DNA from: a virus | IMG/VR virus record: IMGVR_UViG_3300012926_000036 | Span: 2,520 to 66,519 of that record | Length of the DNA: 64,000 nucleotides | Reading direction: 5' to 3' (one strand) | In this document: positions 9,852 through 63,221 of the stretch, in pieces | Position numbering within the stretch: the first letter of the stretch is position 1 | Layout of the letters: each line of letters opens with the position of its first letter | Translations under genes and position numbers: made by a program | The notes under the pieces: generated by a model | What the model saw: the letters and a program-made list of their open reading frames with translations, nothing else | What the model was told of the DNA's origin: nothing | Database searches by the model: none

Positions 9852-11369
9852 TTAGACTGCAACCTTCACGGTTGCAGTTTTCTGGTCAACGATCGATATC
9901 CGCTCAGTTTTCTGGTCAACGATCGATATCTGCTCAGTTTTCTGGTCAACGATCGACGCCAGCGCGGTGTACCCTTGAGTTGTGCTCATCAGCCGCATAC
10001 CGGCCCGTGGCCCTTGTGGCGACAAGCTAATGAGGGCGCCTGAATTAACCGCGTGCCCTTGCAAAATCCCGGCGAGTCGCTTCGTTACACTCAGTAACCC
10101 GGACCCGACCATTCGCCCGGTTGCGGTACCGACCAACCGCTTACTTACAACAATCACCCCGGTATCGATTGACCGCGGTTGACACGTACCACCGATTAGT
10201 TTCGTGGCCAGGAGCGCCCCGCCATTGATGGCCCGCGCGCTGCAAGATCCGCTCAACAATCGCCCGGACCCTAGGGCACCGGTATTCACCCCGCGCGCCG
10301 TCAAACTCCCGGCCAATAGCCGCCCAGAGTTCAACGCGCCAACGTTTACGCCTTTGGGCGTACATGACCCGGCCAACAACTTGGACGCCTTTAGAACGCC
10401 GCTATCAACTGCCTTAGGCGTGCATACGCCGGCCAGATGGATTGCACCACCACTCACCGTAAGCACGCCCGTATTGACCGCCCGCGCCGTGCACGTTCCA
10501 GCGATCGGTTTAGTTGCGGCGAGCGTACCAGAATTAACGCCCTTGGCTGTTACGACTGCTGCGAGTGGCTTAGTTGCGGCGAGGATTCCTGAATTCGCCG
10601 CCCGAGGCGTACAAGTACCGGCCAGAACCCTAACGCTTTGCAGGGTGCCGCTATTCACCCCTTTCGGCGTACACGTTCCAGTAACACGTTTAGTAGCCGC
10701 TAATGCACCGGAATTAACAGCTTTCGGTGTACATGTACCGACTAATATATTAACAACAACTAACGCACCGCTATTAACTCCTTTCGGTTGGCACGTACCA
10801 AGCAGTAATTTACTTGCTGCTAATATCCCTGTATTTACGGCTTTCGGCGTGCTAGTCCCGACGATTAACTTAGTGGCTTTTAATACCCCGGAGTTAACCG
10901 CCTTAGCTTGGCAAGTTCCGCTAAGCGCTAACCCGTTAAGCGCTCCTGAGTTTACCGCTTTAGGTGCGCACGTGCCGGCCAGCAGCTTTGACGCTTGAAG
11001 TATGCCGCTATTCGACGCTTTCGGTTGGCACGTTCCGGATAGCGGCTTGGTTGCCGCCAGTACACCGGTATTAACTCCAGTAGGTGTACATGTACCGACA
11101 AGTAATTTGGAAGCTTTAAAAACCCCTGAATTTACGCCTTTCGGTATACACGTTGCTGACAGTAGCTTAGTTGCTGCCAGAACACCGGTATTTACGCCTT
11201 TCGGTGCACACGACCCGGCTAACGGCTTAGTTGCAGCCAAGACACCGGTATTTACGCCTTTCGGCTGACACGTACCGGCTAACGCGATAGAGCCACCGCC
11301 ACCAGCGTCATTCCACGTGCGAACGGCATCGTTCCACGTGGTTACCGAGTCATTCCAGGTACCCGCCAT
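9852..11369 (-). CDS. Repeat-rich putative tail fibre / beta-solenoid virion protein
   Basis: About 20 copies of a ~20-aa unit (LAGTCTPKGVNTGVLAATK.), N-terminal TWND x3; last gene of the tail cluster. Confidence 0.65.
   Translation of the reverse strand: MAGTWNDSVTTWNDAVRTWNDAGGGGSIALAGTCQPKGVNTGVLAATKPLAGSCAPKGVNTGVLAATKLLSATCIPKGVNSGVFKASKLLVGTCTPTGVNTGVLAATKPLSGTCQPKASNSGILQASKLLAGTCAPKAVNSGALNGLALSGTCQAKAVNSGVLKATKLIVGTSTPKAVNTGILAASKLLLGTCQPKGVNSGALVVVNILVGTCTPKAVNSGALAATKRVTGTCTPKGVNSGTLQSVRVLAGTCTPRAANSGILAATKPLAAVVTAKGVNSGTLAATKPIAGTCTARAVNTGVLTVSGGAIHLAGVCTPKAVDSGVLKASKLLAGSCTPKGVNVGALNSGRLLAGSLTARGVNTGALGSGRLLSGSCSARAINGGALLATKLIGGTCQPRSIDTGVIVVSKRLVGTATGRMVGSGLLSVTKRLAGILQGHAVNSGALISLSPQGPRAGMRLMSTTQGYTALASIVDQKTEQISIVDQKTERISIVDQKTATVKVAV
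9875..9956. repeat. 30-nt tandem repeat (about 2.7 copies) inside a CDS
   Basis: CAGTTTTCTGGTCAACGATCGATATC(C/T)GCT repeated; encodes SIVDQKTE(Q/R)I on the minus strand. Confidence 0.9.
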
Positions 11370-11374
11370 TTATG

Positions 11375-11614
11375 CTATAAATGAGGCGCTTTTATTATCG
11401 AGCTCGATTCAACCGCGCTTAAGAACTCTTTCAGCATTGCGATCATTTCCGGCCTTGGCGCGCTCGACACGTAGTTGCACCGTTCAATATGGCCGCTGGG
11501 CCAAACCAGGACGGCATACATACCGAACCGGGGAAGACGTTTCTCTACATCTTTCCCGATAGCGGTCAACATCACCCGAGTTTTCTCGATAGCTTCTTCT
11601 TCAACTGATGCCAT
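11375..11614 (-). CDS. Hypothetical protein
   Basis: Tightly packed ORF within the tail cluster. Confidence 0.55.
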   Translation of the reverse strand: MASVEEEAIEKTRVMLTAIGKDVEKRLPRFGMYAVLVWPSGHIERCNYVSSAPRPEMIAMLKEFLSAVESSSIIKAPHL

Positions 11615-12031
11615 TTAAATTCCTCCGACTACTGCGGCACCAATTGCGATCGAGTACGGGTTACCGTTGGCAACCGTTTGCGAGGTTGTAAGATCAGCCC
11701 ATAAAAACAGATTACCAGAAGTTGACGCATCAAAGATACCCCATTGCGTTAAACTAACCCCGGCCCCGCTAGACGCTGTGCCCCAATTTATGATTGCTGA
11801 GTTACTAGTACTCCCAGCCGACAACGCCGCCCACGTACCGGTAGCAACAGTTAACGCCTGGCGCGCGTACCCGCCAATGTTACCAGACGTGGTTTCACCG
11901 GTTTGCGCGGTATCGCTAAACCCACCTGTACCAAGCCCCATGTAAAACGTGCCTGGAAACGTACCTGCTGTACCGCGAAGCAATTTTTCCAGTAACAGGT
12001 TCCAACAAAACTGAGTCATGCCACTAGCCAT
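11615..12031 (-). CDS. Small phage tail-fibre-associated protein
   Basis: YMGL.T...E...GGYARQA...SNSA.I.W.TA...WGIFDASTSGNL.W pattern, common in phage tail clusters. Confidence 0.7.
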   Translation of the reverse strand: MASGMTQFCWNLLLEKLLRGTAGTFPGTFYMGLGTGGFSDTAQTGETTSGNIGGYARQALTVATGTWAALSAGSTSNSAIINWGTASSGAGVSLTQWGIFDASTSGNLFLWADLTTSQTVANGNPYSIAIGAAVVGGI

Positions 12032-12066
12032 TTTTTATCTTTCTCTCTTTCACTTTTCTTTTATTT

Positions 12067-12720
12067 TTATCGCCCATAAATTCTTGGGTTAGCAGCTACA
12101 GTAGGAGCACCGGTCAACGTCCATCCTGTAGACGACACCGCGTCAGGCTCAGGCGAACTGCCACCGGTTAACCGCGCGTAACCGATTAATCCTTGTGGCC
12201 GAACAATTCTCGGGCTTGCTCCCGCTACAAGCGAGGCCACATCGGTAGCGCTAAGCGCTACGTTCCAGAATGCTGGGAACGCCATTTGCGCGTTAGCACT
12301 AGGGGTTTGTATCGCCCCATTATAAAAACATGCAGCAATCGCAGTTCTATTTAAATCTGCGGCCGTAGGAGTACATGACACAACACTTGAAACGGCTGTA
12401 TTATTAACGTACATGGTTCGGCTTGTGGCTGAAGCGAACACAGCGCAAATATAGTACCAAGTACCGTTAACTAACGTTACGGCCGGTTGCGCGGTAGCGT
12501 CATCTACAGCCCCGATAATCTCCGCAACCATCTGTCCATTATTCTGATACCATATCTGGTACAACGACGTTTTACTTGCTGTTGCACTTCCTATACCCAT
12601 AACAGCCCACCCAGTACTGGTCGTTGGGTTGAACCACGAACCCATTGATATCGGCATCACAGTCGCGATAGCAACCGATTTACTTAAGTACTGAGTAGAG
12701 CCGCTAAACGACCGAGCCAT
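12067..12720 (-). CDS. LamG/concanavalin-A-like lectin domain virion protein
   Basis: ISMGSWFNP, GTWYYICAVF, MYVN, WNVALSATDV. Confidence 0.75.
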   Translation of the reverse strand: MARSFSGSTQYLSKSVAIATVMPISMGSWFNPTTSTGWAVMGIGSATASKTSLYQIWYQNNGQMVAEIIGAVDDATAQPAVTLVNGTWYYICAVFASATSRTMYVNNTAVSSVVSCTPTAADLNRTAIAACFYNGAIQTPSANAQMAFPAFWNVALSATDVASLVAGASPRIVRPQGLIGYARLTGGSSPEPDAVSSTGWTLTGAPTVAANPRIYGR

Positions 12721-13779
12721 TTAATTGCTTGTCGCTGCAAAACTAGACCATCCGAATAAGTTTTGGTAATCTATAGGATGATTGCCACTAATCCAATAGA
12801 ACCCAATTCCTGGGTTACCGTTTGTGTACGTGCCGTCTGTTACCTGCATTTTTTGCACACCGTTAATGTACACCGTGATAACATTTCCTTTTATAGATGC
12901 CGTTAGCGTACCGTTGTTAATAGGCGATACACCGTGTACGGTACCCATAGGCGTAAAATTATTTACCGCACCGTTCCAACGCGCAATTGACAAATAGTCA
13001 TTATCCGGTGCCGCGTTCCACATGATCTCATACCCCGTGCAGTTATGCGCTGATATCGCGCTTCTGAGCCGGATCTCGCATTCGGCCGAGGCGTTATCGC
13101 GCGGAACACTTGTCACCATGACAGCTGTCACTGTCTGATCTGGACCCCATGTACCGGTAAGGATCGCGGTTGAATCGTTGTAGTTATTTCTATGAGCCTG
13201 GTTGCCGCGTGCCAGGTTCGGCACGGTAGATACGTTGGACCAGTCTAGACCTACTGCCGCACCGTTCTGCCAAATCCCGCCCTCCGATATCGGGTTCTCA
13301 GTTAACGGGAAACTAGTCGAATAATTGCGATTCACCGTAGGCGTCGGACTCGGCGTAGGTGCAGGGGTTGGCGTCGGGCTCGGAGTTCCAGATATTATTC
13401 TCAAATTTACCGGAGCGGCAGGCGTAGGGACCGGGGTAGGGGTAGGCACCGGGGTAGCGCTTGGCGTAGGCGTGGGAAGCGGAAACGTAAAAGTAACCGG
13501 AGAACTGGCTACGCTCGATACACCCGCTGAATTCACCGCCTTTGCCGAAACCGTGTAAGTCCCGACCGGGGTTGATGCGAGATCATAATTTAACTGGGTT
13601 GATCCGTCTGAATTATTCGTTGCCGGCACGGACATTGCCGATGCGCTGAATCCAGAAAGCGAATACGACGTAGGCCGAATATTCGCAGGAGCGGTTGGAG
13701 ACACCGGATCGCACACTAACAATGGTGACCCTAATAAAGGACCAGCTATCAACATTAATATAAGTATTGGTATTTTCAT
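12721..13779 (-). CDS. Secreted/virion protein with FN3-like domain, PT linkers and a beta-sandwich domain
   Basis: Signal peptide; [15 protein letters not shown]; PTPTP linkers; C-terminal [15 protein letters not shown]. Confidence 0.6.
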
Positions 13780-13793
13780 AAATAACTTTTTAT

Positions 13794-14504
13794 TTAAGCA
13801 GCATTCTCGACTGAAACTGTAAATAATTGAGCATCGCCAACCATCGTATCAGCTGCGTCAGCGCCTAATCGTTGAACCTGAAGCCGGAACGGATCACCGG
13901 CTACTGAGCTTACCATATTGGCATACGGTATCGTAATAGCGGTCTCAGAAAATAATTCGACAGTACCGCCTACTGTAGTTGTGCCGGTTACTTGGGTACC
14001 AAAATGGTCACTGGCTACGGTAAGCACACCTAACCTTTCATAAGCTACCCCCCATTTCACGGCATTAGTAATCGCGGTAGCGCTCGCCCATTTAAGCCTG
14101 ACAATAATACCGCTTGCGAACACTTCGCCCCAAGGAACCATGCCAATAAATGTACTTGTCCACGTGGCAGCATCATTGAAAGCCAGAAACGGAATAGCGT
14201 TCACTGTGCCAAAAGTCGCATACAAGGTTGCGGGCGGGTTGCCCTCTAACCCAGCAACCCATTGCTTCCAAGGGCGCCGCCGTATCCGGTACTCATGACT
14301 GGTTGTGACCGTTGAGTTTGTCACCCCAACAGCAGCTTCTAGCGCAAGCTCAACAGTAATAATATTGTTCGTTATCCCGATTTGATCACCTTGATTCGTT
14401 CCAACGGCGTTCAACGGAGTTGTACCAGCAACGATCCCACTTGTAGGCCCTACAGTCGCCGCTGTATCAAGCGTAGTTGGATAAACCGGGGTACCTAAAG
14501 GCAT
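13794..14504 (-). CDS. Putative tail fibre / minor tail protein
   Basis: YPTTLD...[22 protein letters not shown]-terminal pattern; position in the tail cluster. Confidence 0.6.
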
Positions 14505-14507
14505 AAT

Positions 14508-14867
14508 TTATTTCCTCGTTATGTTCGCCCTAATCTCAACCGTTGTAAGATTAGCTATCGTAAACGATTTACCACTACCGTCTGTTATAAGAACATCACT
14601 TAATAAATCTACCGTATCTGCTAATCCTTGAGTATCACTCAATCCTAGCACGGTCTGAAACGTGCCTGTCGCAGCGTTCGTAATAGTAATTCCTGAGTAC
14701 GGACTAGTTGTACCTTTAATAATGGACGCAGCCGAGTTCGGTAACGATTGGTCCGTTTTGAAACATTGCAATATCTGGCACCCAGTAAGGTTTACAATAG
14801 TCCCGTCGGAATGAAACGCCTGATGAACTATAGTTACATCGTTGTCTCGGTAAATTGTCAGTTTCAT
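14508..14867 (-). CDS. BppU-like baseplate/tail protein
   Basis: IYRDND...VNLTG...ITITNAATG.F...L...DT pattern; likely start at MKLTIYRD. Confidence 0.55.
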   Translation of the reverse strand: MKLTIYRDNDVTIVHQAFHSDGTIVNLTGCQILQCFKTDQSLPNSAASIIKGTTSPYSGITITNAATGTFQTVLGLSDTQGLADTVDLLSDVLITDGSGKSFTIANLTTVEIRANITRK

Positions 14868-15217
14868 GATAGTTGTAACGTCCCACCGTTTACCGTAATC
14901 GCCGTACATATACCCGATAAATTCACAGGATCTTGCGGCGCTATTCCTTTATATACCCACACTACTGGGCTAGCTCTAATATCAGCTGTTGCAAATAGGG
15001 TTCCGTCATCGCATAACGCAGCGACAGCAGCCACGCCACCTCCAGGAACGGCTACTAATTCCACAAACTCGCGGTCAACACGTTCCGTTGCTGATCCTAA
15101 TACCTTCCGTAACTGGTGACCAATAACCGGATCAATTAACCCCTTATTAATTGCAGCCAATAGTATCCCAGCAATCGAGTTAGCGTGATTTATGCCTATT
15201 GATACAACTGTAGCCAT
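14864..15217 (-). CDS. Hypothetical tail-region protein
   Basis: Operon packing only. Confidence 0.5.
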   Translation of the reverse strand: MATVVSIGINHANSIAGILLAAINKGLIDPVIGHQLRKVLGSATERVDREFVELVAVPGGGVAAVAALCDDGTLFATADIRASPVVWVYKGIAPQDPVNLSGICTAITVNGGTLQLS

Positions 15218-16053: not shown

Positions 16054-19000
16054 TCAAGCTCCTATTGAGTTCCAATTTATGTTACCGGCTATGGCTGACC
16101 CGGCGTTAAATATCTGTACTGTGAACGTTGCTAACGTGTAACTCGTGACGACAGCGTACGCGGATGTTCCCGATACGGCTGTAACAGTTACAGAAACTTT
16201 CTGTCTGTATGGCACCGGATAATGGATAGTTGCTCCCCCGGCAGGAATAGCTATAAAGAAATCACCTTGCGAAAGCTGATTGGCATCTAACAATATCCAT
16301 AATGACGATACCGATATCGGCCATAGCCCGGAAGTAGGATTCCACGATATGCGCGGTTTAATGTACCTATCCGACACGAACGTTGACGCTACCTCGTCCC
16401 ATACACTGGTAAACACAATATTGTCTTGACTAGTCTTTATTTGCGCAAAAATCGATGTCCAATATTTTGATGACCCGGCCACAATCTCTCCAGACATAGC
16501 GTTAACAAACCCTACGTTTTGCACACTGGGCGCGTACACAGATATCAATTCGCCGCTTAACGTTTTAACGAACCCAACCGGACTAGTGTTATCTAGCACT
16601 ATCCGCAGCCTGACGTAGCGCGACGTAAAATTCGTTGACGACGCTCCCGTACCACTAACTAACGTTGTCCAGGTAGAATTATCGTTTGACCAACTTATCG
16701 ATAACGTCTCAGATATTGCGCCGTTAGCGTACCCTGGAGCATACGTCGCGTTAATGGTCGAACTCCACGGAAACTGATTCGTTAAATCTTTAACGTAATC
16801 AATCGTGGTTGACGTTTGCACATCAAAAACGAACTGATCAAATATCTCAAACCCTGTACCGCCCCCGGTGTAACTAGCATTATGGATCGTTGTCGGCATC
16901 ACGCAGTACGCCGTCGGGTGCACAACGCCGTTAGTTATTATCGTATTATCCCACGATGGCGGTAGCGTAACGACTAGATCTAATGGTGGTAAATTATTTA
17001 GTACAAGCTTGAATTGTGCGTACCTAGCAACGTAATTAGTGTATAACGCGTTAGGGCCACTAATTAATTGCGTCCACGTCACAAGGTCGCTTGACCAGCT
17101 TATTGATAATTTAGCGGCAACAACAGCGTTAGAGTACCCAGGCTTATAATTAGCGTCTAATGTAGCATACCACGGATACGGTGCGTTAACATCCTGGATA
17201 TAACTTATAGTTGTTTTGGCTTGAACATCGAAAATGAATTGATCAAATAACTCGAACCCGGTACCACCTGGCGGAACGTAACTCGCGTTATGTATAGTGG
17301 TAGGAATAATGCAATACGCAGTTGGGTGCAATACCCCGTTTGCTATTGTCGCGTTCTCCCATAACGGGTTAAACACAATTATGAAATCTTCACCAGTAAC
17401 CGGCTGATTCTCTAACCCGATTAAATATTCCGTCACTACCTCGCTTGAGCGCACTGAGGTACCTGACCCTAAAGAATCTAATACCGGTAATTCAACCGTG
17501 CACGTTGACGGCCATCCGTTCACGAAATTATCGAATAACTCAAACCCGGTCCCACCTGGAGGCACGTAGTTTGCCGCTTGTGTATCCTGCGGCAGTAACG
17601 CGTACGCTGTAGGATGCACGAGACAGTTTGTGAATATTGTTCCGTTCCCGGTATCCCAATCAGGCGTACTCGCCACCCCGATATCAAGCGCGTGATTAAC
17701 CGGCCCGTAATTTTTCTCCGCTAAAATGTACGTGTACGCCGGGATATTCAGATCGTACGATACCGGAGCCGAGTACGTCCCGAACATGTCCATTGATGCC
17801 ACATAGAACGTCCACACGTTCGGCGGGATATTCGTTAACTGCACAGACCCTGCACTTGGCACCTTTGTCGCTGCAATCTTAGCCTTGAACCATGTGCCTC
17901 CGATCGCCCCGTACCGTATCTCGTACCCGACAGCTAACCCGGACGTATCATCTTTCCAACTGAATAGCACAGCATTCCCGTTAGTACCAACAATTAAGTT
18001 TGTTGGACCATTAAGACCGCCCCCGCCGCTATCGCCCTTGAACGTGTACGCAAAGATGGATGATAAACTTAAATCAAACGTGTTAGTTTGATTAAAGCCC
18101 TGCATTTTAAAATACCAGGTATCACCAATCTTCCACGATGGATGGCTTAGCACACCCATTCTCGACCGGGCAACAAACCACGCATTATCCAGCGCATTAT
18201 GAAACACTGGCTGCACTGTGCCGTAACACGCGCGCCTTGTGTAAATCCTGAACTGGTTATTACCAAGAGGTATAACCTGCCCCATTGACATTATCTCTTT
18301 ATTAAGAAATATTAACCACTCAAAATTATCGCGCTCAAGATCACTCTTAGAGATTAGCTCAACTAAATCTATGTCACCGGTAATTATCCATAACCCCTCG
18401 AACGTATCCACAACCGGAGTTTGTCCGTAATGCTGCTGTAACCTGCCCCATATAGCAAACCCCGATTGCACATTTATATGATCGTACACCTGGGAACCGA
18501 TCGGATCTCTAGTAAACCACGGGGTGAACCCTAGCATTAATGAATCATTACGCGCGGCCAATATCGCTATAACTATACCGGTAGTGCTTTTACCTAGCCC
18601 GGCTGGCAACTCTACAATACGCGCATTAGTAATATCTAGAGCTAAAATATCCGGACGGCTAGGGTACGTTGGCGCGTCTAACGAATACGCATACGTCCAT
18701 GTGCCGCGCTCCTGCTCAACGTCAAGATCACATATCCATTTTGTTGCCTCAGATAACGTTTTAGCTTTTAGCCGAAACAACCCCTGCATATTATAGGTCG
18801 TAGCCGCTATTTGAATTATGTCACCAGGGTTAGCGCCTGACACTAATTCTTTAGAAACACTTACCTTGCCAGATATTATAGGATTTGCGTACAGCGTACC
18901 CATAAAATACGCATGATAAAATGCTAGACCTGGGTGCGCTATCCAAGGCCGATCATACGTAACGAACCTAACAAACCCTTGAATCAACTGGTTACCAAAA

Positions 19001-20049: not shown

Positions 20050-20525
20050 AATAATAATGGTCGGAACGCTGCCTGATAATGTTTACGGAAATATGGGCCG
20101 GTCATATCGAACCTAGTCACGCCATATGGATAGACAGCCTGCATAGTGTACACACTGCTGATCGCTATTCCGCAATGATGCACACATAACCCATGCCGGT
20201 AACAGATCACGTCGCCAATCTCTATCCCTCGTTGACCAACGTTTTCATCGAATACCATTAGTTCAGAAACGTCTTTAGCTAGATCTGTGCGTTTTCGTAA
20301 CCATTCTAGTATCAACGATTTCTCATTATGACACGCGTGTCTCGGATCAATGAACGGTAACGGCTCAAGATTAACCATACCCATTGCTGCAAATATCGAC
20401 ATTACTAACCCGGCGCAATCCACCCCGCCGGTCACACCTTTGACGCAAGCTCCTACATGAAACGGGGTACCCTCCCACGATAGTGCCTCAGCCACGATAG
20501 CTGATTGCCGTTGGTCAATTGTCAT
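20040..20525 (-). CDS. NlpC/P60 tail-associated peptidase
   Basis: EALSWEGTPFH...GVDCAGLV...GDV...HHCGI. Confidence 0.9.
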   Translation of the reverse strand: MTIDQRQSAIVAEALSWEGTPFHVGACVKGVTGGVDCAGLVMSIFAAMGMVNLEPLPFIDPRHACHNEKSLILEWLRKRTDLAKDVSELMVFDENVGQRGIEIGDVICYRHGLCVHHCGIAISSVYTMQAVYPYGVTRFDMTGPYFRKHYQAAFRPLLLCR

Positions 20526-54928: not shown

Positions 54929-56302
54929 TTACGGCGGCGGTTGTGGTCGCCCTGGCCGACGCGCGTAATTTGTGTACGCGCTCATCATTGAATGACTTGC
55001 GGCTGAGATTGGAGCAGCAGCAACACTTGCTGCCGCGCCTGCTGTCGAACGGCCACCACCGGCCGCCATTATAGCTATTGTCCCAACCGTTGCCCCGAAT
55101 ACCGATGCGACTCCGGCACCACCACCACCGATCAGTAACGCTGAGATAATCAACGGTGCAACGAACGAGCTCCCGATCACCCACACGGCCAGTAGCACCC
55201 AGTACCCGAGCATCATTGATGACCCGGAGAACGCGCTTAACGCAAGGTTGTTCGTCGGGTTCACCGCAAACGCGATTAGTGCGCGTGTCAATAAATCGCA
55301 GATCGCCCAACCAAGTGACCAGATACAAATCGCTGCGAGCGAACAAAAGAACCGGGTTGCTATCCCGACTAAACGCGGCACCATAAGTAGCCCGATAAAA
55401 ATCGGCGAAATCGCAATCTCGATTGTGTACAAGATCTGTTGCGCGGCCTGCATTAAATACATGATCCCGAGCGCAATTAAACTCAATAGATGCACAAGCG
55501 GGTACAGCAGCCCGATTGTAAGTGAATCGCCAATCTTCGAGATCCAACCACCGAGCGGCCCGCTATTACCACCTCCACCGCTGCTGCCGTCGAGTGATGC
55601 GAACTCGTTATTGGGATCGAACAGATCAACGCGCCGGTTGCTCTCCGGTGCTGTGTCGTCGTCTCGCACCGTCATGCCCTGGTACGGGAACACGTTCCCG
55701 GTCGATACGCCCGTAACGCCGAACATTGCGTACCGTTCCGATTGCGTCAAAGCAACGGAACGCAATTGAGGTGTTGCAATTAGTTGGTTTTGACGATCAC
55801 CTATCCCATGTGCGCTATTCCAGTCAGGCGTCGTATCCCCGGCATACCCGTAATGCGTTGTTTGCACGTCGCCAGATTGTGCGAACGCTAAACTGGCGTC
55901 GCCCTCGGTCGTCGGCGTCGGTTGCGATTGTTGTTGCTGTTGGGATTGGGATTTAGGCACCGACCCGTCGGAGCCGAATTTGCGCGCTACGGCGTCTCGG
56001 TACGCGGCAAAGATCCCGCCCTCCACGCCGCCTAACCCCATTTGGCCTACAACATCGTTCACCGCATCGGTTAATAAATCGCCCCACGCACCAAGGCTGC
56101 CGATCATGATTACTACGACCACAAGCCGGACCAAGGTCGGCATGATATTACCCGTAGATTTCTCGCGTAACCCTTGAAACGCCAAAAGAAAAATGCCGAG
56201 CATAGCTAGAACGAACGTAACGCCAATAAGAATATTGTGTAGCGTGTGAGCCCCGGATTCGAACCCTGGCATCAACTGTAGAAAATCTACGGCTAAAATC
56301 AA
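54929..56302 (-). CDS. trbL: TrbL/VirB6-like membrane protein with an inserted soluble domain
   Basis: Multiple TMs, ISPIFIGLL.P, W..GWA; Gly/Ala-rich tail; insert ending DDTAP...RVDLFDP. Confidence 0.75.
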   Translation of the reverse strand: MILAVDFLQLMPGFESGAHTLHNILIGVTFVLAMLGIFLLAFQGLREKSTGNIMPTLVRLVVVVIMIGSLGAWGDLLTDAVNDVVGQMGLGGVEGGIFAAYRDAVARKFGSDGSVPKSQSQQQQQSQPTPTTEGDASLAFAQSGDVQTTHYGYAGDTTPDWNSAHGIGDRQNQLIATPQLRSVALTQSERYAMFGVTGVSTGNVFPYQGMTVRDDDTAPESNRRVDLFDPNNEFASLDGSSGGGGNSGPLGGWISKIGDSLTIGLLYPLVHLLSLIALGIMYLMQAAQQILYTIEIAISPIFIGLLMVPRLVGIATRFFCSLAAICIWSLGWAICDLLTRALIAFAVNPTNNLALSAFSGSSMMLGYWVLLAVWVIGSSFVAPLIISALLIGGGGAGVASVFGATVGTIAIMAAGGGRSTAGAAASVAAAPISAASHSMMSAYTNYARRPGRPQPPP

Positions 56303-56589
56303 TTGTCACCCCATTTCTTCGGTAGTTGCCGGAAGTTATCAGCCGGTAACCCCTTTAGATCGTTCCGAATCGCTGCCCGCTCGGCCTCAGCGCGCTGGAT
56401 TAACGCGTTCTCTTTCGCCTGAATCTCGGCAAACACATCTTTCTCGAACTGTTTAACGGCAGTAGCAGCTGCATAATCACCGTCAGATTTTTGTGCCTTT
56501 AGTTCTTTCTGGAGCTCGCTTATTTGCCGATGATGAACCGCCTCGATAGAGGCAACCACCAATAAACACAAAAACAGCGCATAATTCAT
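56299..56589 (-). CDS. Small exported protein sharing its C-terminus with the TrbJ-like gene
   Basis: N-terminal hydrophobic helix; ends DLKGLPADNFRQLPKKWGDN. Confidence 0.5.
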   Translation of the reverse strand: MNYALFLCLLVVASIEAVHHRQISELQKELKAQKSDGDYAAATAVKQFEKDVFAEIQAKENALIQRAEAERAAIRNDLKGLPADNFRQLPKKWGDN

Positions 56590-57395
56590 TAATTTGATCC
56601 CCATACCCGAGTTTGCCTGAAATTGTCGGCTGGGAGCAAGCGCAAATCCTGGTCAACGCCTTGGTACGCCGCCGCCGCCCGTTGTTCGGCCTGGCTCGTC
56701 TGATAAATCTGTTGGCCAGCCTGGATCTGGTGCCCTTTGATCGTTACCCGGTGTGCCACCTCGTTGGCGCGTGCCCCGAGTTCCGCGATGGCGCCGTTTA
56801 ACCCGTCCAAAACACCGTGATACTTTTTCACTTGGGCATCGGTCGTTGCTGATTGTAACCCTTGCAACGCCGTATCGCGCTGTGTCTCAAGCCGTTGCCG
56901 TTGTTCTTCGATTCGTTTAAGCTCGTCATCAGCCGCCGTTGCTACGTTGTACCGGGCCGTATCGAACTGGTAAAGGCCCTGGGCCGGCCCGACGTTGTAC
57001 CCCGAATAGGTAGAGTACCCGTTCCATTGCGGTTGGCTGTACGAGCCTAGGATGTAGTTTGCGTCCTGCTGATACCGTTTAGGGTTCAAGTACCCTTGCC
57101 ACCGCTGATAATCGGACATCAACCGTTGCCCGGTACCGTACAGCTCGGCAATCGTTGACACGCCGGGGATTGAGCGCAGCGCAGCCGGATCACCTAGGCG
57201 CGCAACTTGGAGAATGGTATTTTCGTAAGTGCCAAGCGTATTAAGCGCTGTCTCAGTACTTTTAACGGCGGTCTCCGCGTCTCTTATCAGGTTAGCAATA
57301 TTAACAGTGTGATTAATAGGATCGTACACAACATCGTAGCACCATACGTAGCGCGTCATCGCTACCGAGATAAATAACAATGTTAAAATTTTCAT
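56589..57395 (-). CDS. trbJ: TrbJ/VirB5-like protein
   Basis: Signal peptide then VVYDP.N motif; Gln-rich helices; upstream of the trbL-like gene. Confidence 0.7.
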   Translation of the reverse strand: MKILTLLFISVAMTRYVWCYDVVYDPINHTVNIANLIRDAETAVKSTETALNTLGTYENTILQVARLGDPAALRSIPGVSTIAELYGTGQRLMSDYQRWQGYLNPKRYQQDANYILGSYSQPQWNGYSTYSGYNVGPAQGLYQFDTARYNVATAADDELKRIEEQRQRLETQRDTALQGLQSATTDAQVKKYHGVLDGLNGAIAELGARANEVAHRVTIKGHQIQAGQQIYQTSQAEQRAAAAYQGVDQDLRLLPADNFRQTRVWGSN

Positions 57396-57616
57396 TCCCA
57401 TATTTTATCCAATGCTTTTTCAAAAAAATTATGTGCTTCACCTCCACGGCCGTCTGCGCCATCAATAATTATCACGGTGGCAGCCGCTAAAGCGTTAAGC
57501 GCCTCAAGACAACGATCTCGTGATACAGGGCCACGTTTAAAGTTTTCCCTGATTAACTTTAAAATATCTGCAGTTAACCCCTCGACACGATCCCGATCTA
57601 ACTCTTTATCGCTCAT
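57392..57616 (-). CDS. Small hypothetical protein
   Basis: ATGA-coupled on both sides. Confidence 0.5.
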   Translation of the reverse strand: MSDKELDRDRVEGLTADILKLIRENFKRGPVSRDRCLEALNALAAATVIIIDGADGRGGEAHNFFEKALDKIWE

Positions 57617-57987
57617 TTAACGAGAAATAGTTTTCGCCCATGACTTTGTGTCACCGCCCAGAGTTGCACAACCTCAACTACACTGTTTGACGCCTCTTTA
57701 AGTGTACCGTCCGGCTCGACATGCTCAGGCACAGGAACGTTCACGTAACGCCGTTTCAATTGCGTGCTTGGCGTCACGTCTACCATTCCACCGGTCTCCT
57801 GCGCACGTCGTTGCGCCCAGTACAGCCGTTTAATAGTGTCACCGGACCCGAGATCATAAAAGTTGCGGGCAACAACCTTTTCGTGGTACCCGAGCACAGA
57901 AAACTGTTCACTCGCCGTGTGTGAGTTCGGGAGTTTAACACTTGTGCACCCAGTCACGGCGATCACTGCTAATACTAAAATTCTCAT
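57613..57987 (-). CDS. Conjugation-cluster lipoprotein (VirB7/TraV-like candidate)
   Basis: MRILVLAVIAVTG-C lipobox. Confidence 0.6.
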   Translation of the reverse strand: MRILVLAVIAVTGCTSVKLPNSHTASEQFSVLGYHEKVVARNFYDLGSGDTIKRLYWAQRRAQETGGMVDVTPSTQLKRRYVNVPVPEHVEPDGTLKEASNSVVEVVQLWAVTQSHGRKLFLVK

Positions 57988-58172
57988 CGTCCAATCTCCG
58001 GATGTAATAATACCATTGCGCGCAGCGCTAAATCTTTACACGTTCGTTTAGGATGCATTGGGCTTCCAAGTAAGCTTACAGCTTTAATGAAGCATTCCAG
58101 CTGTTCAATCCTTTCAATATGCATCTTTTGACGCTTTAACGCCTCCTCCATTTTGGGACCATTAATAATCAT
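57984..58172 (-). CDS. Small hypothetical protein
   Basis: ATGA-coupled on both sides. Confidence 0.45.
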   Translation of the reverse strand: MIINGPKMEEALKRQKMHIERIEQLECFIKAVSLLGSPMHPKRTCKDLALRAMVLLHPEIGR

Positions 58173-58528
58173 CGCTCAATCCCCGATTCGTGCACCGGCG
58201 CTTTCCGTTGCGTGAACTGCCAGTTTGTAGCGTTCACGAACAGTTTTGACCGGTTTTGGCCGGTCTCTTTATCGGTCCATTGATCTTGCCGGAGCGCGCC
58301 CTCAATAAAAATCTCTTGCCCTTTCTTAACTAGACTAGCAAAATTTTCTGCGCTCTTGCCCCATAACCGGATATCGAGAAACGTTGTTACATTACGTTTC
58401 TCGTTATCGCTTATAAAGCTTTCATTTACACCGATAGACACGTTACTCACCGGCGTGCCTTGCGGCGTGAACCTTACCTCCGGTTCACGTACCACGTTCC
58501 CAACCACTGCTACCTTATTTATGTTCAC
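58169..58528 (-). CDS. ssb: Single-stranded DNA-binding protein (no acidic tail)
   Basis: INKVAVVGNVVREPEVRFTPQG, WGKSAE, KKGQEIFIEG.L....W.DKETGQNRS. Confidence 0.92.
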   Translation of the reverse strand: MNINKVAVVGNVVREPEVRFTPQGTPVSNVSIGVNESFISDNEKRNVTTFLDIRLWGKSAENFASLVKKGQEIFIEGALRQDQWTDKETGQNRSKLFVNATNWQFTQRKAPVHESGIER

Positions 58529-61224
58529 GCTGCGTTTTCCATCCTGATTATTTTCATTTTTTCTTCGTGCACGTCACCACTTGAACTCGTTATTTGTTCA
58601 ACCTCGTCACTGATATAGTTCCGGCCAACTGTGTATTTAGGTATGTCGCCGTCTAGTTGAGCGTACACGAACCCGGCATACGCGTCATCGCTAGGCATCT
58701 CAGCCGGCTTCGGGAACCGCGTAATCTGATCCTTGATAACGTCCGGAATCGGGCGCGGCATATACTCGGACAACGTATCTATATCTTGCCGATTATGGTT
58801 CCGGAGCAATAACATTGCAGACGCCATTGACACAATCGCTTTAGCCGCTTTCGGGCTAACCTCGAATAATGTGCCGTAATCCTGGAACACACTGATAACT
58901 TGGCAACTGTACTTACGCATACGCGCATAATAATCGACCACTATCTCGGCACCGTTTGGCACCTTGAGGAACGATGTCATTTCTTCAATAATGACTTGTT
59001 TCTTGACTGAGCGCGGCATGCCTTGGATATGGTTACGCACCTCGTTCGTAATTAGGAACCCGACAACTGCGCGTAGATCCTCTTGCGATTTATCAATCTT
59101 TTCTAGCTCAAAATGCACAACTTTTAATGGATCAGATGCGCGTACTTGAGCAGAGCCGAGATCAATGTTGCTAACCCCATCAACAAGGCCGCCGTGCAAA
59201 CCATCACGCAACCAAGGATGTACCAAGCTAGCAAGCGTAGCATAAATACTCTGGTGCGGTCCTTTCTGGATCGAGGCGGCGTGAAGTTCATCTTGTAGAT
59301 CGGATAGGGTAGGGAACATGTCGGGCGTCCACTCGGAGATAGCTAACGCTTGCACGAGATACTCGGTCTCCGGGTTGCGCCCAAACGCGATTGATTCTTT
59401 ACCGGCGATCACACTCTCGAACCCGGTAAATGAGGCCAAGTTAGCGCGCACCTCAAGGAACGCGTCAATGAACGAATCCAGTTTGCGTGCCTCCTGGAAA
59501 TTAATAAGTGCGGCCGCCGTTACGCAAAGATCGTAAAACCGAGTCGGGTTCGCGTTCCGCCATTTGCGGTATCGCACGCCGTACACAGCGCTAATCGTTT
59601 CGGCTAGGAGCGCGGCACGCAGTTTGTCCTGGTCGCTATCCGAATGCCGGCCAATAAGCAAATGGCACAGCGCGGTTGCGCTCGCTAAATGCTGGCTCGA
59701 TAACGGGAGCCCGCGCGTATCGAAAATGTTGAACGTCAAACTGCCGTCTGCCCGGACAATGATCGGGCGACAGTTTGGGTCGAGTTTGTGACATGTCGTC
59801 GCCCACGATAGGCCGTCATCGATCACAACGATAAACCCGAACATTGGCGCTGTCTGGATTGCAATCGTCTGGAGTAGCACGCTTTTGCCAGCGCCCTGGA
59901 TTGCTGCAACGAACATGTGGACCGGCTGCGCCCCTGTAAACATCCTGCCTCCTATCAGGTTCTTTCGATCACCATCAGTGATCCAATCGGCTCTATCTAA
60001 CTCAGCTCGGGGTGTCGACCCAGCCGGCCACATGTTCGCAACATTCACCGCGTCACTTACCTTGTGCCAATAATCGCGGTACCGTACCCACGGCCCGATC
60101 CCTGGTGTAGCGCAATTGAAAAATGCAATGGTCGCGGTTGCAACCGACGGTTCGTAAGACACGCACCCGGTCTTGCCGAGTGCAGCCCGAACAGCTGCGA
60201 GCCTACCGTCGAGACTATCCGGTGTACGATCGCTTACAATGACAATAAGTTGCGCCTTGAACGGCAGAACGCGATTAGACATTAATTGTCGAATCTTTTC
60301 TTGATGATTCTCAAGGCCAACTATTGACACCGGGTCCGGCTCGCCGTCTTTCGGGTACGCATTTGACCATAGTTTACTGAATCGCTCTTGTTCGTACAAA
60401 AGTTCAGCATCAATTCCTGTCGGCTCCATATTCAAGACAACGCGCAGGTTCGGCATCGTTAACGCCAGGAACGCGTCCATTGTACGAGCCCATGTCTGGC
60501 GCGGGAATGTTTTAGCAACGAGCACGCCAAAATAATAGCCGTCCATATAAAACCCGTGATCCGGAGCTGTTTGAGGTGAAATACCGCTCGCCCTACATAG
60601 ATCCTCAATTGGCCGTAACCAATCTATCTCGCCCTCGTACATGTACGATTGCCGGGCTTGACTTGGAGACCAAAACCTAAGTAACTCGCGGTATTGCGCA
60701 CGGTTATCAAGCCCTTTAACGCTGCCACCGTGCCCTGCCATTAACACATTAAAAAATTGTTCCCGTTGTTTGAACGAGTTCGCTAACACTTTAAACACGT
60801 CACTGAACCCGCGTACATGCCGCCCGTCATCTTTAATCAGCTTCGGTATCCTAGTCGATAAACATAGACGCACATTCGCCTGGATTAACGTCTCCGCCGC
60901 CACACGATCACGAAACCTATTACACAGCTCGCCACGAACACTGCTAGATATCCCAACGCGTCCATTACCTTCTTTCTCAAATCGATCAATTGGCACCGAG
61001 AACTCATTCCCGGTATAATACTGAATCTGCAACCGCTCATCTGGTTGCATACACCCGAGCATTAATCGGATATCAGACTCCTGACGGTCAAAGGCCCAGT
61101 CTTCCGACGCTGACATATCCGGAAACTCAATTGCGTACAACCGGCTAAGGATCGCACCTGCGCCAAGGTTACCCCAAACCGCGTGGTTATCTACTAAATA
61201 CCCGGATGGAATATTAAGTTGCAC
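58525..61224 (-). CDS. virB4: VirB4-like conjugative ATPase
   Basis: 899 aa; Walker A IQGAGKS, VIDDG.S, FNIFD, PTLSDL, IIEEM, RMRKY....SVFQ. Confidence 0.85.
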   Translation of the reverse strand: MQLNIPSGYLVDNHAVWGNLGAGAILSRLYAIEFPDMSASEDWAFDRQESDIRLMLGCMQPDERLQIQYYTGNEFSVPIDRFEKEGNGRVGISSSVRGELCNRFRDRVAAETLIQANVRLCLSTRIPKLIKDDGRHVRGFSDVFKVLANSFKQREQFFNVLMAGHGGSVKGLDNRAQYRELLRFWSPSQARQSYMYEGEIDWLRPIEDLCRASGISPQTAPDHGFYMDGYYFGVLVAKTFPRQTWARTMDAFLALTMPNLRVVLNMEPTGIDAELLYEQERFSKLWSNAYPKDGEPDPVSIVGLENHQEKIRQLMSNRVLPFKAQLIVIVSDRTPDSLDGRLAAVRAALGKTGCVSYEPSVATATIAFFNCATPGIGPWVRYRDYWHKVSDAVNVANMWPAGSTPRAELDRADWITDGDRKNLIGGRMFTGAQPVHMFVAAIQGAGKSVLLQTIAIQTAPMFGFIVVIDDGLSWATTCHKLDPNCRPIIVRADGSLTFNIFDTRGLPLSSQHLASATALCHLLIGRHSDSDQDKLRAALLAETISAVYGVRYRKWRNANPTRFYDLCVTAAALINFQEARKLDSFIDAFLEVRANLASFTGFESVIAGKESIAFGRNPETEYLVQALAISEWTPDMFPTLSDLQDELHAASIQKGPHQSIYATLASLVHPWLRDGLHGGLVDGVSNIDLGSAQVRASDPLKVVHFELEKIDKSQEDLRAVVGFLITNEVRNHIQGMPRSVKKQVIIEEMTSFLKVPNGAEIVVDYYARMRKYSCQVISVFQDYGTLFEVSPKAAKAIVSMASAMLLLRNHNRQDIDTLSEYMPRPIPDVIKDQITRFPKPAEMPSDDAYAGFVYAQLDGDIPKYTVGRNYISDEVEQITSSSGDVHEEKMKIIRMENAA

Positions 61225-61225
61225 T

Positions 61226-61450
61226 TTATCCTTGATTCATGATCGTCGCGTTATGTACAGCAATTTGGTTCAATTGCCGTTCCTCGATCATCTTTAACCG
61301 ATCAGAGTTTACGTGCTCATCTTTGGGAACCTTGCACAACATATCGGCAGCCCTACGTAACGCTTTTACTTCATCTTCAAGTTTATCGGCCGCACTCCGT
61401 AAGTTATCTGCCATCTGTTCGGTAACTGATTCAACCTTTTTTGTTCTCAT
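61226..61450 (-). CDS. Small coiled-coil hypothetical protein
   Basis: ORF directly upstream of virB4. Confidence 0.5.
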   Translation of the reverse strand: MRTKKVESVTEQMADNLRSAADKLEDEVKALRRAADMLCKVPKDEHVNSDRLKMIEERQLNQIAVHNATIMNQG

Positions 61451-61516
61451 GATGTTTCTACATGCGCTAATATTGCTGATTCTTTTACATGCTCTGTTTA
61501 AAGATCTCGACTCTTA

Positions 61517-61738
61517 TTAATTATCAGCGAGAAATGCGACTAATTTACCGTTCTTTACATCCACCATCGCTTGTCTGTAGCCGGTTTCCCAGGCTGCTTG
61601 AAACCATCCTCCTACAATTCTGCTGGCTTCACCCCCTAGCTCCTCCTGGTCGTGTTTCATAAACTCGTTGAACGCCATACTAGGAACCTGATGTATGGAT
61701 GCTTCAAATGGCAGTGTTGTCCAATTGTAGGGTTTCAT
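61517..61738 (-). CDS. Small hypothetical protein
   Basis: FQAAWETGY pattern seen in small phage ORFs; ATGA-coupled start. Confidence 0.45.
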   Translation of the reverse strand: MKPYNWTTLPFEASIHQVPSMAFNEFMKHDQEELGGEASRIVGGWFQAAWETGYRQAMVDVKNGKLVAFLADN

Positions 61739-61899
61739 GTCGCTACACTGCCCCACACCCTAATCGGCTTTGTTAAATCTTGCCCTTTTTTGAACCGTTT
61801 ATAATGCGTGTCACAAAACCCGAGCCCGGACGCGTATTTTTTACAGTTCGGAACCGAACACAGCACAGGTTCCTTTTTTGGTCTACCAATTTTCGCCAT
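61735..61899 (-). CDS. Small Zn-finger protein, 54 aa
   Basis: Manual translation ...CSVPNC...GFCDTHYKR..., the C-x4-C...C-x2-H finger often found N-terminal to phage HNH proteins. Confidence 0.55.
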   Translation of the reverse strand: MAKIGRPKKEPVLCSVPNCKKYASGLGFCDTHYKRFKKGQDLTKPIRVWGSVAT

Positions 61900-61901: not shown

Positions 61902-62258
61902 TTAAAACTCCTTTGGATGAATTAACGCTTTATCGCGCACCCATAATTCCGGAGGCCGATCTTTAATACCGTTCATGTATAATCGCGTTCGTAAACGCCA
62001 GGAAAAGAATAGAAACCGATCACTGGCGTAACTAGGTGGTTTACCGTTCACAAACAGTTGCACATACACTACTGCCACTATAATCGGCAGTAAACTAATA
62101 GCAAGGTTCACCGGCCAATCAACATCATACGCCGCCAGTATTCGAAACATCGCCATAAACATGGCCGCGCCAGCCACGAGATAAATAACTGAGCGGCCAT
62201 GAAATATCCACACGTTTGGGCGCCATTCACGCGCACAATTGTTTGAATGCATCTCCAT
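61902..62258 (-). CDS. VirB3/TraL-like membrane protein
   Basis: Two TMs and a GKPPSY motif; between the pilin and virB4 genes. Confidence 0.6.
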   Translation of the reverse strand: MEMHSNNCAREWRPNVWIFHGRSVIYLVAGAAMFMAMFRILAAYDVDWPVNLAISLLPIIVAVVYVQLFVNGKPPSYASDRFLFFSWRLRTRLYMNGIKDRPPELWVRDKALIHPKEF

Positions 62259-62521
62259 TAATTAATCCCGCCAATTGTCATATTAACGTTTTGGCCACCG
62301 GCAGTGAATAGCGCACCGACAATCAGGAACGCTAACCCGGCCACGAGTGCAATCACAATTGCGGTTTTAACCCCGCCAATATGCCGCTCGGATAACGCCA
62401 TAATTGCAGCACCGATTAACCCGCCAAATACCGCGATAAACCCAATCGCGTTAATAACACCAGCAGCATTGCTAAGCGCCTGCATTAGACCGGCTGCAAG
62501 AAATAAAGAATTGTTCATCAT
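62258..62521 (-). CDS. VirB2/TrbC-like pilin
   Basis: 87 aa, two hydrophobic helices; first gene of the T4SS cluster. Confidence 0.65.
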   Translation of the reverse strand: MMNNSLFLAAGLMQALSNAAGVINAIGFIAVFGGLIGAAIMALSERHIGGVKTAIVIALVAGLAFLIVGALFTAGGQNVNMTIGGIN

Positions 62522-62673
62522 TTAAACCTTGGTAATAATGTCCAATCAATTTTGGGTAATTCGTACTCCCACCAGCTACACACTGTACATCTGCGAATCG
62601 GTTCCTTAACAACGCCATTTACGCACATGTAGGAGATGGATGTTTTATTATTGCACCATAGACATGTTTTCAT
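62518..62673 (-). CDS. Small Zn-ribbon protein, 51 aa
   Basis: Manual translation MKTCLWC...RCTVCSWW; ATGA overlaps on both sides. Confidence 0.5.
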   Translation of the reverse strand: MKTCLWCNNKTSISYMCVNGVVKEPIRRCTVCSWWEYELPKIDWTLLPRFK

Positions 62674-62855
62674 CGTTCAAGCCCTGGTAACTCAGCGTGC
62701 CGAAACGCGGTCAACCGATACCGATTGATCGATTCGCGTTCGGCAATATTCGCCAACATGTTTTGCGCGCTCCGTTTCGAGGTGAGCGCAACTATTAAGT
62801 CGCGCTCACCCGGTGTACGCGCCAGTTTCGTTATCTGGTACACGAGCGAGTCCAT
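62670..62855 (-). CDS. Small hypothetical protein
   Basis: Operon packing only. Confidence 0.45.
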   Translation of the reverse strand: MDSLVYQITKLARTPGERDLIVALTSKRSAQNMLANIAERESINRYRLTAFRHAELPGLER

Positions 62856-63221
62856 TTAGACGGCTCCGACTGGATATCCTTCAGGTACCGGGTCAGTAGC
62901 CCGCGCAATAACGATCGTGCCGTTCTCACCAATCTGGCGCACATGAAACTTGCGGCCAACTTTTTTGCCGAAGTTGATCGTAGATTGCCGTACACGCGCA
63001 AAATCGCCATCAACCTCAAGTCCCGCACCAACTTCAACCTTATCTAACGCCAGGATAAACTCGCTCCGGTACGTGGCGCGCGCAATAACATCCGAGATCT
63101 TCTCGTGCCCAACATCCAATACGGAAACAATGCTGCGCACGGCCGGCGTAGTCGTCTTCGGTGCGCGTTTCTTCACAACTTTCTTCGATTCATCTTTCAT
63201 AAATTTAAAATACTGCACCAC
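62856..63221 (-). CDS. Putative DNA-binding protein heading the long minus-strand operon
   Basis: Basic N-terminus; L..VEVG...V.....R......KK.GRKF.VR pattern. Confidence 0.45.
   Translation of the reverse strand: MVQYFKFMKDESKKVVKKRAPKTTTPAVRSIVSVLDVGHEKISDVIARATYRSEFILALDKVEVGAGLEVDGDFARVRQSTINFGKKVGRKFHVRQIGENGTIVIARATDPVPEGYPVGAV

Follow-up and report, generated by a model that had tools for sequence, protein, structure and literature searches.

A 64,000-nucleotide stretch of viral DNA, hereafter the window, carries a conjugation block of about 20 kb that continues directly into the genes for the large terminase (TerL), portal, capsid and tail, all on the minus strand. The window corresponds to bases 2520-66519 of a single-contig, 66,519-bp virus record (IMGVR_UViG_3300012926_000036, called G000 here), and positions are those of the window unless marked "contig". 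We read it as the larger part of a temperate phage genome, of siphovirus type and with soil Verrucomicrobiota as hosts. An ancestor of this phage would have gained, between its small (terS) and large (terL) terminase genes, the conjugation block of a verrucomicrobial integrative and conjugative element (ICE), and the fused element would since have evolved as one unit that spreads by two routes. The probability of this reading is roughly 0.6. Spread by both virions and conjugation is what the gene content suggests.

The two gene modules

A self-transmissible conjugative element, as defined in CONJscan, comprises a relaxase, a type IV coupling protein (T4CP), a VirB4 ATPase and mating-pair genes. 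In the initial annotation, nearly all genes from 63221 to 9852 were placed on the minus strand, running from virB4 through virD4 to a relaxase and then, after one open reading frame (ORF) and a gap of about 155 nt, from terL through portal and capsid to tail. The family matches agree with this order, the gap measures 156 nt, and every annotatable ORF in the ORF list from 63221 down to 9852 is on the minus strand. The genes of the type IV secretion system (T4SS) block are as follows, TM standing for transmembrane.

62856-63221, minus: 121-aa ORF, first gene of the block; no Pfam, NCBIfam or PHROG match, no TM segment
62258-62521, minus: VirB2-like pilin candidate, 87 aa; two hydrophobic segments, topology only
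61902-62258, minus: VirB3-like candidate, 118 aa; two TM segments, topology and position only
58525-61224, minus: VirB4/TraC-family ATPase, 899 aa; Pfam P-loop_TraG 4.4e-7
58169-58528, minus: single-strand DNA-binding protein (SSB); Pfam SSB 4.2e-28
57613-57987, minus: small lipoprotein, VirB7-like by kind only; signal peptide and Cys in the translation
56589-57401, minus: secreted coiled-coil protein, VirB5-like candidate; signal-like N-terminus, no family match
54929-56302, minus: polytopic membrane protein with a soluble insert, VirB6/TrbL-like candidate; seven predicted TM segments, no family match
53028-53621, minus: VirB8/TraE/DotI-like bitopic protein, 197 aa; N-terminal TM segment, Atlas lead
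52045-53031, minus: VirB9/CagX/TraK-like candidate, secreted, 328 aa; signal-like N-terminus, weak Atlas lead
50712-51839, minus: VirB10/TrbI; Pfam TrbI 4.5e-12, above cut-off
50117-50743, minus: lipoprotein; the likely true start is an internal Met of ORF 50117-50929
48864-49772, minus: AAA_2 (ClpB-type) ATPase; Pfam AAA_2 1.5e-27, sits where many systems have VirB11
47252-48667, minus: T4CP of the VirD4/TraG/TrwB class; TraG-D_C 4.9e-9 and TrwB_AAD_bind 1.1e-6, both above cut-offs
46715-47095, minus: conserved two-TM protein directly after the coupling protein; kept in relatives
42788-45592, minus: MOBF-type relaxase with RecD-like helicase; Pfam TrwC 8.3e-37, AAA_30 8.5e-38
42435-42791, minus: orf118, conserved, 118 aa; next gene after the relaxase in relatives of both phage and ICE type

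The family profile of the relaxase matches TraI of F (2.4e-55) and the TrwC relaxase domain (4.1e-23) among PDB sequences. In an alignment of 17 sequences, Y22 and Y32 are at least 90% conserved and H176, H192 and H194 are invariant. This is the relaxase-helicase architecture of the MOBF systems (TrwC of R388, TraI of F), with the same conserved His and Tyr columns. The P-loop_TraG match of the VirB4-like protein scores 29.3 bits against a cut-off of 25.8. A ClpB-like AAA protein had been noted in the gene set and is the AAA_2 ATPase listed above. In one relative of the coupling protein, P0267, AAA_2 and T4CP domains are found within a single protein, a hint that the AAA_2 ATPase works with the coupling protein.

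The block had also been said to begin with a pilin gene and virB3. Candidates for both exist at 62258-62521 and 61902-62258, recognised by topology, whereas the first ORF, 62856-63221, is not pilin-like. For the VirB8-like protein, all ten of the best named Atlas hits belong to the VirB8/TraE/DotI set and the TM-score to the VirB8 cluster is 0.71, which we treat as a lead. The first Atlas hit of the VirB9-like candidate (0.96) is a cluster with CagX on 13% of its members, and TM-scores to TraK are 0.37-0.47; its own structure model is too poor for use (pLDDT 42.7). Within ORF 50117-50929, a lipobox-like LLAGC follows the internal Met, and the match to a second genome, G001 (see below), begins at residue 71.

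The block is followed by the packaging and virion genes.

42279-42434, no strand: junction gap of 156 nt between the ICE-derived block and terL
40905-42278, minus: TerL; PHROG 1.1e-10, PDB large-terminase match 8e-7 (family profile)
32359-33930, minus: portal, Mu type; Pfam Portal_Mu 5.9e-67, PHROG portal 7.2e-54
27629-30247, minus: head module with maturation protease (28964-30247), small head protein and major head protein (27629-28549); PHROGs 3.8e-22 and 6.4e-23
16054-26628, minus: tail module with major tail protein, tape measure, hub, NlpC/P60 peptidase and a 1331-aa distal tail protein

TerL has no Pfam match; its Walker A, Walker B and Asp columns are conserved and its relatives are named "terminase large subunit". 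Of the components of a tailed phage, TerL, portal, an HK97-type major head protein with its protease, and tail genes are present. The junction gap holds no ORF, no match to G001 and no convincing terminator.

Replication and recombination genes occupy 438-8857 (N6/N4 methylase, DnaB-like helicase, AAA_24, PD-(D/E)XK and VRR-NUC), and their homologues lie just upstream of terL in two phage relatives devoid of a T4SS, L092 and L131. The initial annotation had seen no integrase, att-like repeat or host gene. None is present at the junction; a tyrosine recombinase is encoded at contig 1584-2441, just outside the window. It is 70% identical to that of G001 and 42% identical to that of L092, which places it in the phage backbone.

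Conservation of the junction in a second genome

Relatives with the same junction had been called for, and one was found. A scan of IMG/VR with the relaxase alone found nothing, and a scan with the relaxase alignment found only the second record, G001 (65,084 bp, CheckV completeness given as 100%). Its ends overlap by 123 bp. The overlap lies within a terS-like gene and is therefore read as a circular-assembly overlap rather than a physical end. G000 and G001 are collinear over all modules, at 64-76% nucleotide identity in whole-genome BLAST. Forty-eight of the 69 listed G000 ORFs have a match in G001 in the same order, including the run relaxase-orf118-terL. Protein identities are 40-80% overall (TerL 79%, T4CP 79%, portal 77%, AAA_2 75%, major capsid protein 75%, relaxase 72%, VirB4 58%; 73-75% for the head genes). 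The smaller T4SS candidates are kept in G001 as well, and several of them also in a homologous island on a Verrucomicrobiae chromosome (see below). Identities to G001 and to the island are 65% and 60% for the pilin candidate, which has no family match, 58% and 54% for the VirB3-like protein, 60% and 37% for the VirB6-like protein, 75% and 67-72% for the AAA_2 ATPase and 79% and 76% for T4CP. The VirB5-like candidate is 69% identical to its G001 counterpart, and the VirB7-like lipoprotein is kept in both. The first ORF, 62856-63221, has a 38% identical homologue in G001 and none in the island.

Read support across the junction had been proposed as a check. The junction stretch is present in nine soil-metagenome runs from six studies. 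Single, independent Logan contigs in two of these runs (55,208 bp at depth 33; 18,402 bp at depth 11) span 34-53 kb with one difference each and no joints. It must be noted that these two runs may be source data, in which case the bridging tests the assembler and not the sample. Two further runs, not marked as possible sources, yield pieces at depth 0-6 over both modules.

Bounding att sites would have marked the T4SS block as an independent ICE. Around the block (41800-64000) there are only imperfect repeats of 14-37 nt, none att-like, at chance level by a rough estimate. One pair, at 42788 and 62670, agrees at 15 of its 16 nt, with another copy at 58169.

Selection, composition and size

Inactivation of either module had been named as a possible refutation, with dN/dS as the check. 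Among 34 orthologous pairs of G000 and G001, the proportion of synonymous differences (pS) is 0.49-0.85 and thus saturated. The proportion of nonsynonymous differences (pN) is 0.14-0.27 across the T4SS block (16 genes) and 0.13-0.37 for packaging and virion (13 genes). The ratio of nonsynonymous to synonymous rates (dN/dS) is 0.04-0.43 where dS is computable. Both modules are intact and under purifying selection.

The GC content is similar in all parts of G000 (T4SS 50.1%, virion 48.6%, replication 49.5%; 0.44-0.56 per 2-kb interval). The tetranucleotide correlation of the T4SS block with the phage parts is r = 0.83-0.85, and 0.91 in G001. The homologous island, by contrast, resembles the chromosome that carries it (r = 0.95; GC 54.7% versus 55.6%). 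Saturated synonymous divergence with the genes kept, uniform composition and the phage-type HNH or endonuclease VII ORFs inside the block all argue for long co-residence of the modules. Long co-residence had been argued from phage-type ORFs interspersed with the conjugation genes; such ORFs, genes or fragments of HNH or endonuclease VII type by PHROG, account for three of the ten small block ORFs tested and not for the others. The comparison of G000 with G001 and the composition make the case better.

About 13-15 kb of each genome consists of private ORFs (sum of unmatched ORFs), yet the two lengths agree within 2%. Those of G000 include a 7-kb glycosidase-like block; among those of G001 are genes for an autotransporter and a C5 methylase and for a fibre protein of greater length. 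Other assemblies with an identical TerL or T4CP reach 66,833 and 66,817 bp and no more. This near-constant size fits a free replicon under a packaging or head-size limit.

Origin of the block and site of insertion

The conjugation block has a close chromosomal counterpart. A 346-kb contig of a Verrucomicrobiae metagenome-assembled genome (MAG), G006:C38, carries at 32249-51548 an island collinear with 42435-62521 of the window, with the same gene order from the pilin-like gene to orf118. Identities not already given are 76% for the VirB8-like protein, 60% for VirB10, 59% for VirB4, 39% for orf118 and only 33% for the relaxase. No phage genes adjoin the island: positions 1-60000 of G006:C38 contain no phage homologue and that genome has no TerL match. 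The island's match to VirB4 (G006:C38 48223-50794) contains two TGA stops or a frame break and its AAA_2 match (40618-41515) is split in two, owing to decay or assembly error.

A homologue of orf118 is found at all 17 metagenome loci that hold the relaxase end together with downstream DNA, one of them being G001's own contig. The other 16 loci (57-66% relaxase identity, at least 400 nt beyond orf118) are all without terL. In these ICE-type loci orf118 is followed instead by a tyrosine integrase (one locus) and by genes for NYN, DUF3560 and SSB proteins. The SSB of the block is likewise present in ICE-type relatives. In a quick maximum-likelihood tree, which excluded partial relaxases and most of a 37%-identity group, the relaxases of G000, G001 and five other clusters form one clade (SH-aLRT 100) inside the ICE-context relatives. 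The T4SS type is very common in soil, since 1861 T4CP relatives are found in public metagenomes at E <= 1e-40, many of them 70-79% identical, although most of its genes match no curated family. Searches of GenBank phages by tblastn with relaxase and VirB4 gave no match, and among PLSDB plasmids T4CP matched seven records, all below 40% identity.

The phage side presents the converse picture. The TerL family comprises 371 proteins at E <= 1e-5, and at none of the 80 best IMG/VR TerL loci, all at 43% identity or less, is there a homologue of any block gene. The TerS candidate is contig ORF 741-1196, left of the window, with HTH_23 and a weak hit to the Sf6 small terminase. Its homologue lies about 400-700 nt upstream of terL in nine of the 80 TerL relatives. 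In G000 and G001, the T4SS block and a short divergent plus-strand cluster lie between the TerS candidate and terL. The adjacency seen in relatives devoid of a T4SS thus locates the insertion site between the likely terS and terL.

Probable host

Verrucomicrobiota, previously a tentative guess, is now the probable host from both modules. Species-representative genomes yielded 22 relaxase loci; the titles of 15 name Verrucomicrobiae or Chthoniobacterales, and every one of the 13 loci with E <= 1e-52 is among these. Two Verrucomicrobiae/Chthoniobacterales MAGs encode VirB4 and T4CP relatives at 56-76% identity (56-64% for VirB4), and one T4CP cluster is named Chthoniobacterales. On the phage side, the top three of 80 matching GenBank phage records for TerL are the Akkermansia phages Chambord, DTMo-2021a and Chantilly (34-37% identity, E 8e-76 to 2e-64), with a host in the same phylum and genomes of 31-37 kb. 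In the class of G006, 18 of 401 genomes have TerL relatives, 33-43% identical; the TerL search revealed no closer TerL and no integrated copy of the lineage among these 401 genomes.

Candidate origin of transfer

46161-46267, minus: conserved non-coding stretch, candidate promoter and/or origin of transfer (oriT) of the relaxase gene; G001 match

This is the sole intergenic piece of the block with a strong match to G001 (78% over 109 nt, E 2e-16), where its counterpart is directly upstream of the relaxase gene. It contains a near-consensus promoter sequence, TTGACA-18-AATAAT (an 11/12 match), and the alignment shows a 7-bp hairpin within it. An inserted endonuclease VII gene separates this stretch from the relaxase gene in G000.

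45589-46140, minus: endonuclease VII/HNH-type gene; Pfam 4.9e-15, PHROG endonuclease VII 2.1e-22

The insertion is specific to G000, being found at that place in neither G001 nor the island.

Model of spread and alternative explanations

The phage integrase would excise the circular 65-67-kb DNA or maintain it. By one route, the DNA would be replicated, packaged by TerS/TerL through the Mu-type portal into HK97-type heads and released by lysis. By the other, the relaxase would nick oriT, for which 46161-46267 is the candidate, and the coupling protein and T4SS would pass a single strand to a touching cell. In the recipient, the transferred strand would be recircularised and established. That the element belongs to a diverged, size-constrained lineage of temperate verrucomicrobial phages which really uses both virions and its self-encoded conjugation system, a "conjugative phage" family with a T4SS operon between terS and terL and perhaps with T4SS blocks exchanged with resident ICEs, has in our judgement a little less than an even chance.

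A number of observations weigh against the reading of G000 as a dual-route phage. Several T4SS parts (VirB2, B3 and B6, and the VirB8- and VirB9-like proteins) are named from topology or Atlas look-alikes only. NCBIfam matches of the VirB4-like protein to TIGR02746 (TraC-F-type, 1.1e-20) and TIGR00929 (VirB4_CagE, 1.3e-10) are both far below the curated cut-offs, and a PDB sequence search gave no match for VirB4 or T4CP. The coupling protein is atypical in having no N-terminal TM segment. No VirB11 or VirB1 family was found among the ORFs scanned with Pfam and NCBIfam. Some types of mating-pair formation (MPF) system do without VirB11, so that its absence is compatible with conjugation. The stretch 46161-46267 is the best oriT and promoter candidate, and a candidate only. 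Scans for promoters and terminators gave chance-level counts (12 found versus 10.7 expected, 16 versus 12.3, 11 versus 14.2, 14 versus 13.9). No holin or endolysin family was identified in G000. The TerS assignment is likely, from its position in nine of 80 relatives and from weak hits; against PDB sequences the candidate gave only weak rows of TetR-type helix-turn-helix (HTH) proteins. Circularity, proposed as a check, was not borne out on the G000 contig, the ends of which show neither a direct nor an inverted repeat.

The relatives also raise difficulties. In a FastTree phylogeny of T4CP, from which proteins outside 440-640 aa were excluded, G000, G001 and contigs of 59,877 and 63,851 bp group at 0.99; 22-kb contigs are placed elsewhere, with the Verrucomicrobiae island between both groups (supports 0.65-0.94). 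This split of the presumed hybrids may reflect exchange of T4SS blocks with ICEs or two captures. The hybrids in question are contigs of equal size in different searches: 63,851, 36,273 and 5,753 bp among relaxase and TerL members, 59,877 bp among relaxase, TerL and T4CP members, and 63,851, 22,320, 21,321 and 22,996 bp among TerL and T4CP members. On equal size alone, this suggests six or seven further hybrid contigs. By a rough count, chance equality is very unlikely for the long contigs and not negligible for that of 5,753 bp.

An alternative, unlikely but the most serious of those considered, assumes a functional phage in which the T4SS block has ceased to transfer the phage itself and persists for a different purpose, for instance to transfer other DNA or proteins, to make contact between cells or to exclude related ICEs. 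The atypical features just listed, with the AAA_2 ATPase in the place of VirB11, and the candidate status of oriT would agree with this, as would the homing-endonuclease genes and fragments settled inside the block. Against it, the relaxase retains its conserved Tyr and His columns and the helicase domain; the genes for relaxase, T4CP, SSB and every channel candidate are undamaged in G000 and G001 alike, at the low pN and saturated pS given above; and the gene set and order are those of the chromosomal island. Conversely, the element might be conjugative with a defective phage part or one resembling a gene transfer agent, the gain of 20 kb being perhaps too long for the ancestral head. TerL relatives lacking a T4SS are on contigs, complete or partial, of at most about 52 kb, many of 34-41 kb, no lysis gene was found in G000, and TerS is about 22 kb away from TerL. 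We consider this improbable, because none of the genes for packaging, head, tail, replication and integration is disrupted, all being conserved, and the two genomes differ by no more than 2% in length although each has 13-15 kb of ORFs of its own. Assembly yields a free circle or a contig of about 66.8 kb devoid of host flanks, at depth 33 in a bulk soil run. A gene transfer agent would have no replication or integration genes of its own, and here both are present and conserved.

Tandems and cointegrates of phages and conjugative elements are known from two reports (PMC13651849; 10.1101/2025.03.14.643293). An assembly chimera, a fresh cointegrate or a phage-ICE tandem formed by accretion at one att site would also join the two modules; such an origin is already contradicted and we give it hardly any weight. 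Misassembly was rejected on the grounds that the same junction is found in G001, about 70% identical, and is bridged by the independent Logan contigs. Only one recombinase was found, the repeats around the block (16-25 nt) are at chance level, gene order is kept despite saturated synonymous divergence, and composition is uniform. The preferred reading thus remains that of a single phage genome with a captured conjugation block.

Relation to known systems

Gene transfer is viewed as having two separate engines: phages, limited by receptors and head size, and conjugative elements, limited by cell contact. Both machines kept intact over saturating synonymous divergence would show that their combination can be stable. 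If conjugation does take place, it would let a phage reach cells lacking its receptor. The arrangement would also account for certain elements that classification tools push into one of the labels "virus" and "plasmid", and it offers a concrete system in the little-studied soil Verrucomicrobiota, with a defined insertion site, a candidate oriT and identifiable relatives. What is new here is the fusion of phage and ICE into one evolutionary unit; both parent kinds are known.

According to a 2025 review, no conjugative phage is known. Literature searches, supplements aside, turned up no phage lineage reported to carry a complete T4SS within its genome, and no account of this verrucomicrobial one; the list of putative phage-plasmids in Supplementary Table 3 of 10.64898/2025.12.20.690322 may be relevant to novelty. 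P1-like elements in which phage genes were lost and mob genes or an oriT acquired are described by Pfeifer and Rocha (2024, PMC10879196). The phage-ICE tandems of Huang et al. (Sci Adv 2026, PMC13651849) are similar to the present case in that a prophage and a conjugation machine travel together. There, the phage integrase may provide excision and the ICE machinery transfer, and the two adjacent elements keep their identities after site-specific accretion, "rather than a hybrid element" in the authors' words. In contrast, the T4SS block described here has neither its own integrase nor an att pair, lies between terS and terL, and has diverged jointly with the phage.

Plasmid p1002-1 of E. coli (SegMantX preprint, 10.1101/2025.03.14.643293) also combines phage and conjugation gene sets on one replicon; it is described as the product of joining a known conjugative plasmid to a known phage-plasmid of P1 type. 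Unlike p1002-1, the present lineage is diverged and compact (65-67 kb). Pfam scans of the ORFs examined, which took in part of the small ORFs, detected no plasmid replication initiator or partition gene; the single hit of this type comes from G001, in which a methylase is fused to a ParB_N domain. Phi1207.3 of Streptococcus pyogenes, a "conjugative prophage" (PMC4260502), is reported to transfer in matings. The start of its abstract mentions no T4SS, and host and sequence are unrelated. With respect to conjugation systems, the mating-pair genes are far from the MPF-T and MPF-F models and most have no Pfam or NCBIfam match.

Other features of the element

The G000 contig contains no N, no tRNA and no Rfam family. 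The remaining features are listed below.

63506-63856, plus: lipoprotein ORF after 63303-63509; no Pfam match
63303-63509, plus: HTH-like small ORF, 68 aa, divergent from the T4SS genes; HTH read by eye from the translation
33846-40900, minus: block found only in G000, between terL and portal; encodes two large proteins, both glycosidase-like, besides small ORFs
9852-15217, minus: distal genes; 14508-15217 common to G001, 9852-14504 specific to G000

The divergent region 63303-63856 is possibly regulatory. A model of orf118 (pLDDT 78) gave no Foldseek match at E <= 0.001; the best VIA-align Z is 5.0, to PH-like folds. HNH remnants occur inside the T4SS block at 61226-61899 (a fragment of 54 aa, 9e-7) and at 48652-48903 (HNH-like, 3.3e-4), the latter having no counterpart at that place in G001.

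The block between terL and portal yields matches to CHB_HEX_C_1 (6.1e-17), GH30 (3.1e-6) and, below the cut-off, GH43 (3.2e-4), and ORF 39848-40114 matches a tail-fibre PHROG. The block is not at that place in G001. Its 720-aa protein is 36% identical to part of a 1164-aa ORF of G001 behind the tail genes; it seems, therefore, that a fibre- or depolymerase-type gene was moved or re-acquired at another place. Between terL and portal, G001 encodes a GH46 protein (L008:3901-4602). Its other extra genes encode an autotransporter beta-domain protein (L009:11177-12490), a C5 cytosine methylase (L009:14879-15811) and the ParB_N-methylase fusion (L010:3299-4582).

Among the distal genes, 9852-14504 includes a Gp80 fibre domain and Laminin_G_3. 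The 505-aa ORF 9852-11369, which has no family match and no G001 homologue, contains tandem repeats of 30 nt at 9875-9956 (2.7 copies, 98% match) and of 60 nt at 11165-11284 (2 copies). In the replication region, the piece 4682-6048 consists of a repeat-rich non-coding stretch, with a 15-nt period at 4814-4861 (TRF), followed by ORFs 4988-5608 and 5605-6048. It is missing from G001, although the flanking genes are common to both genomes.

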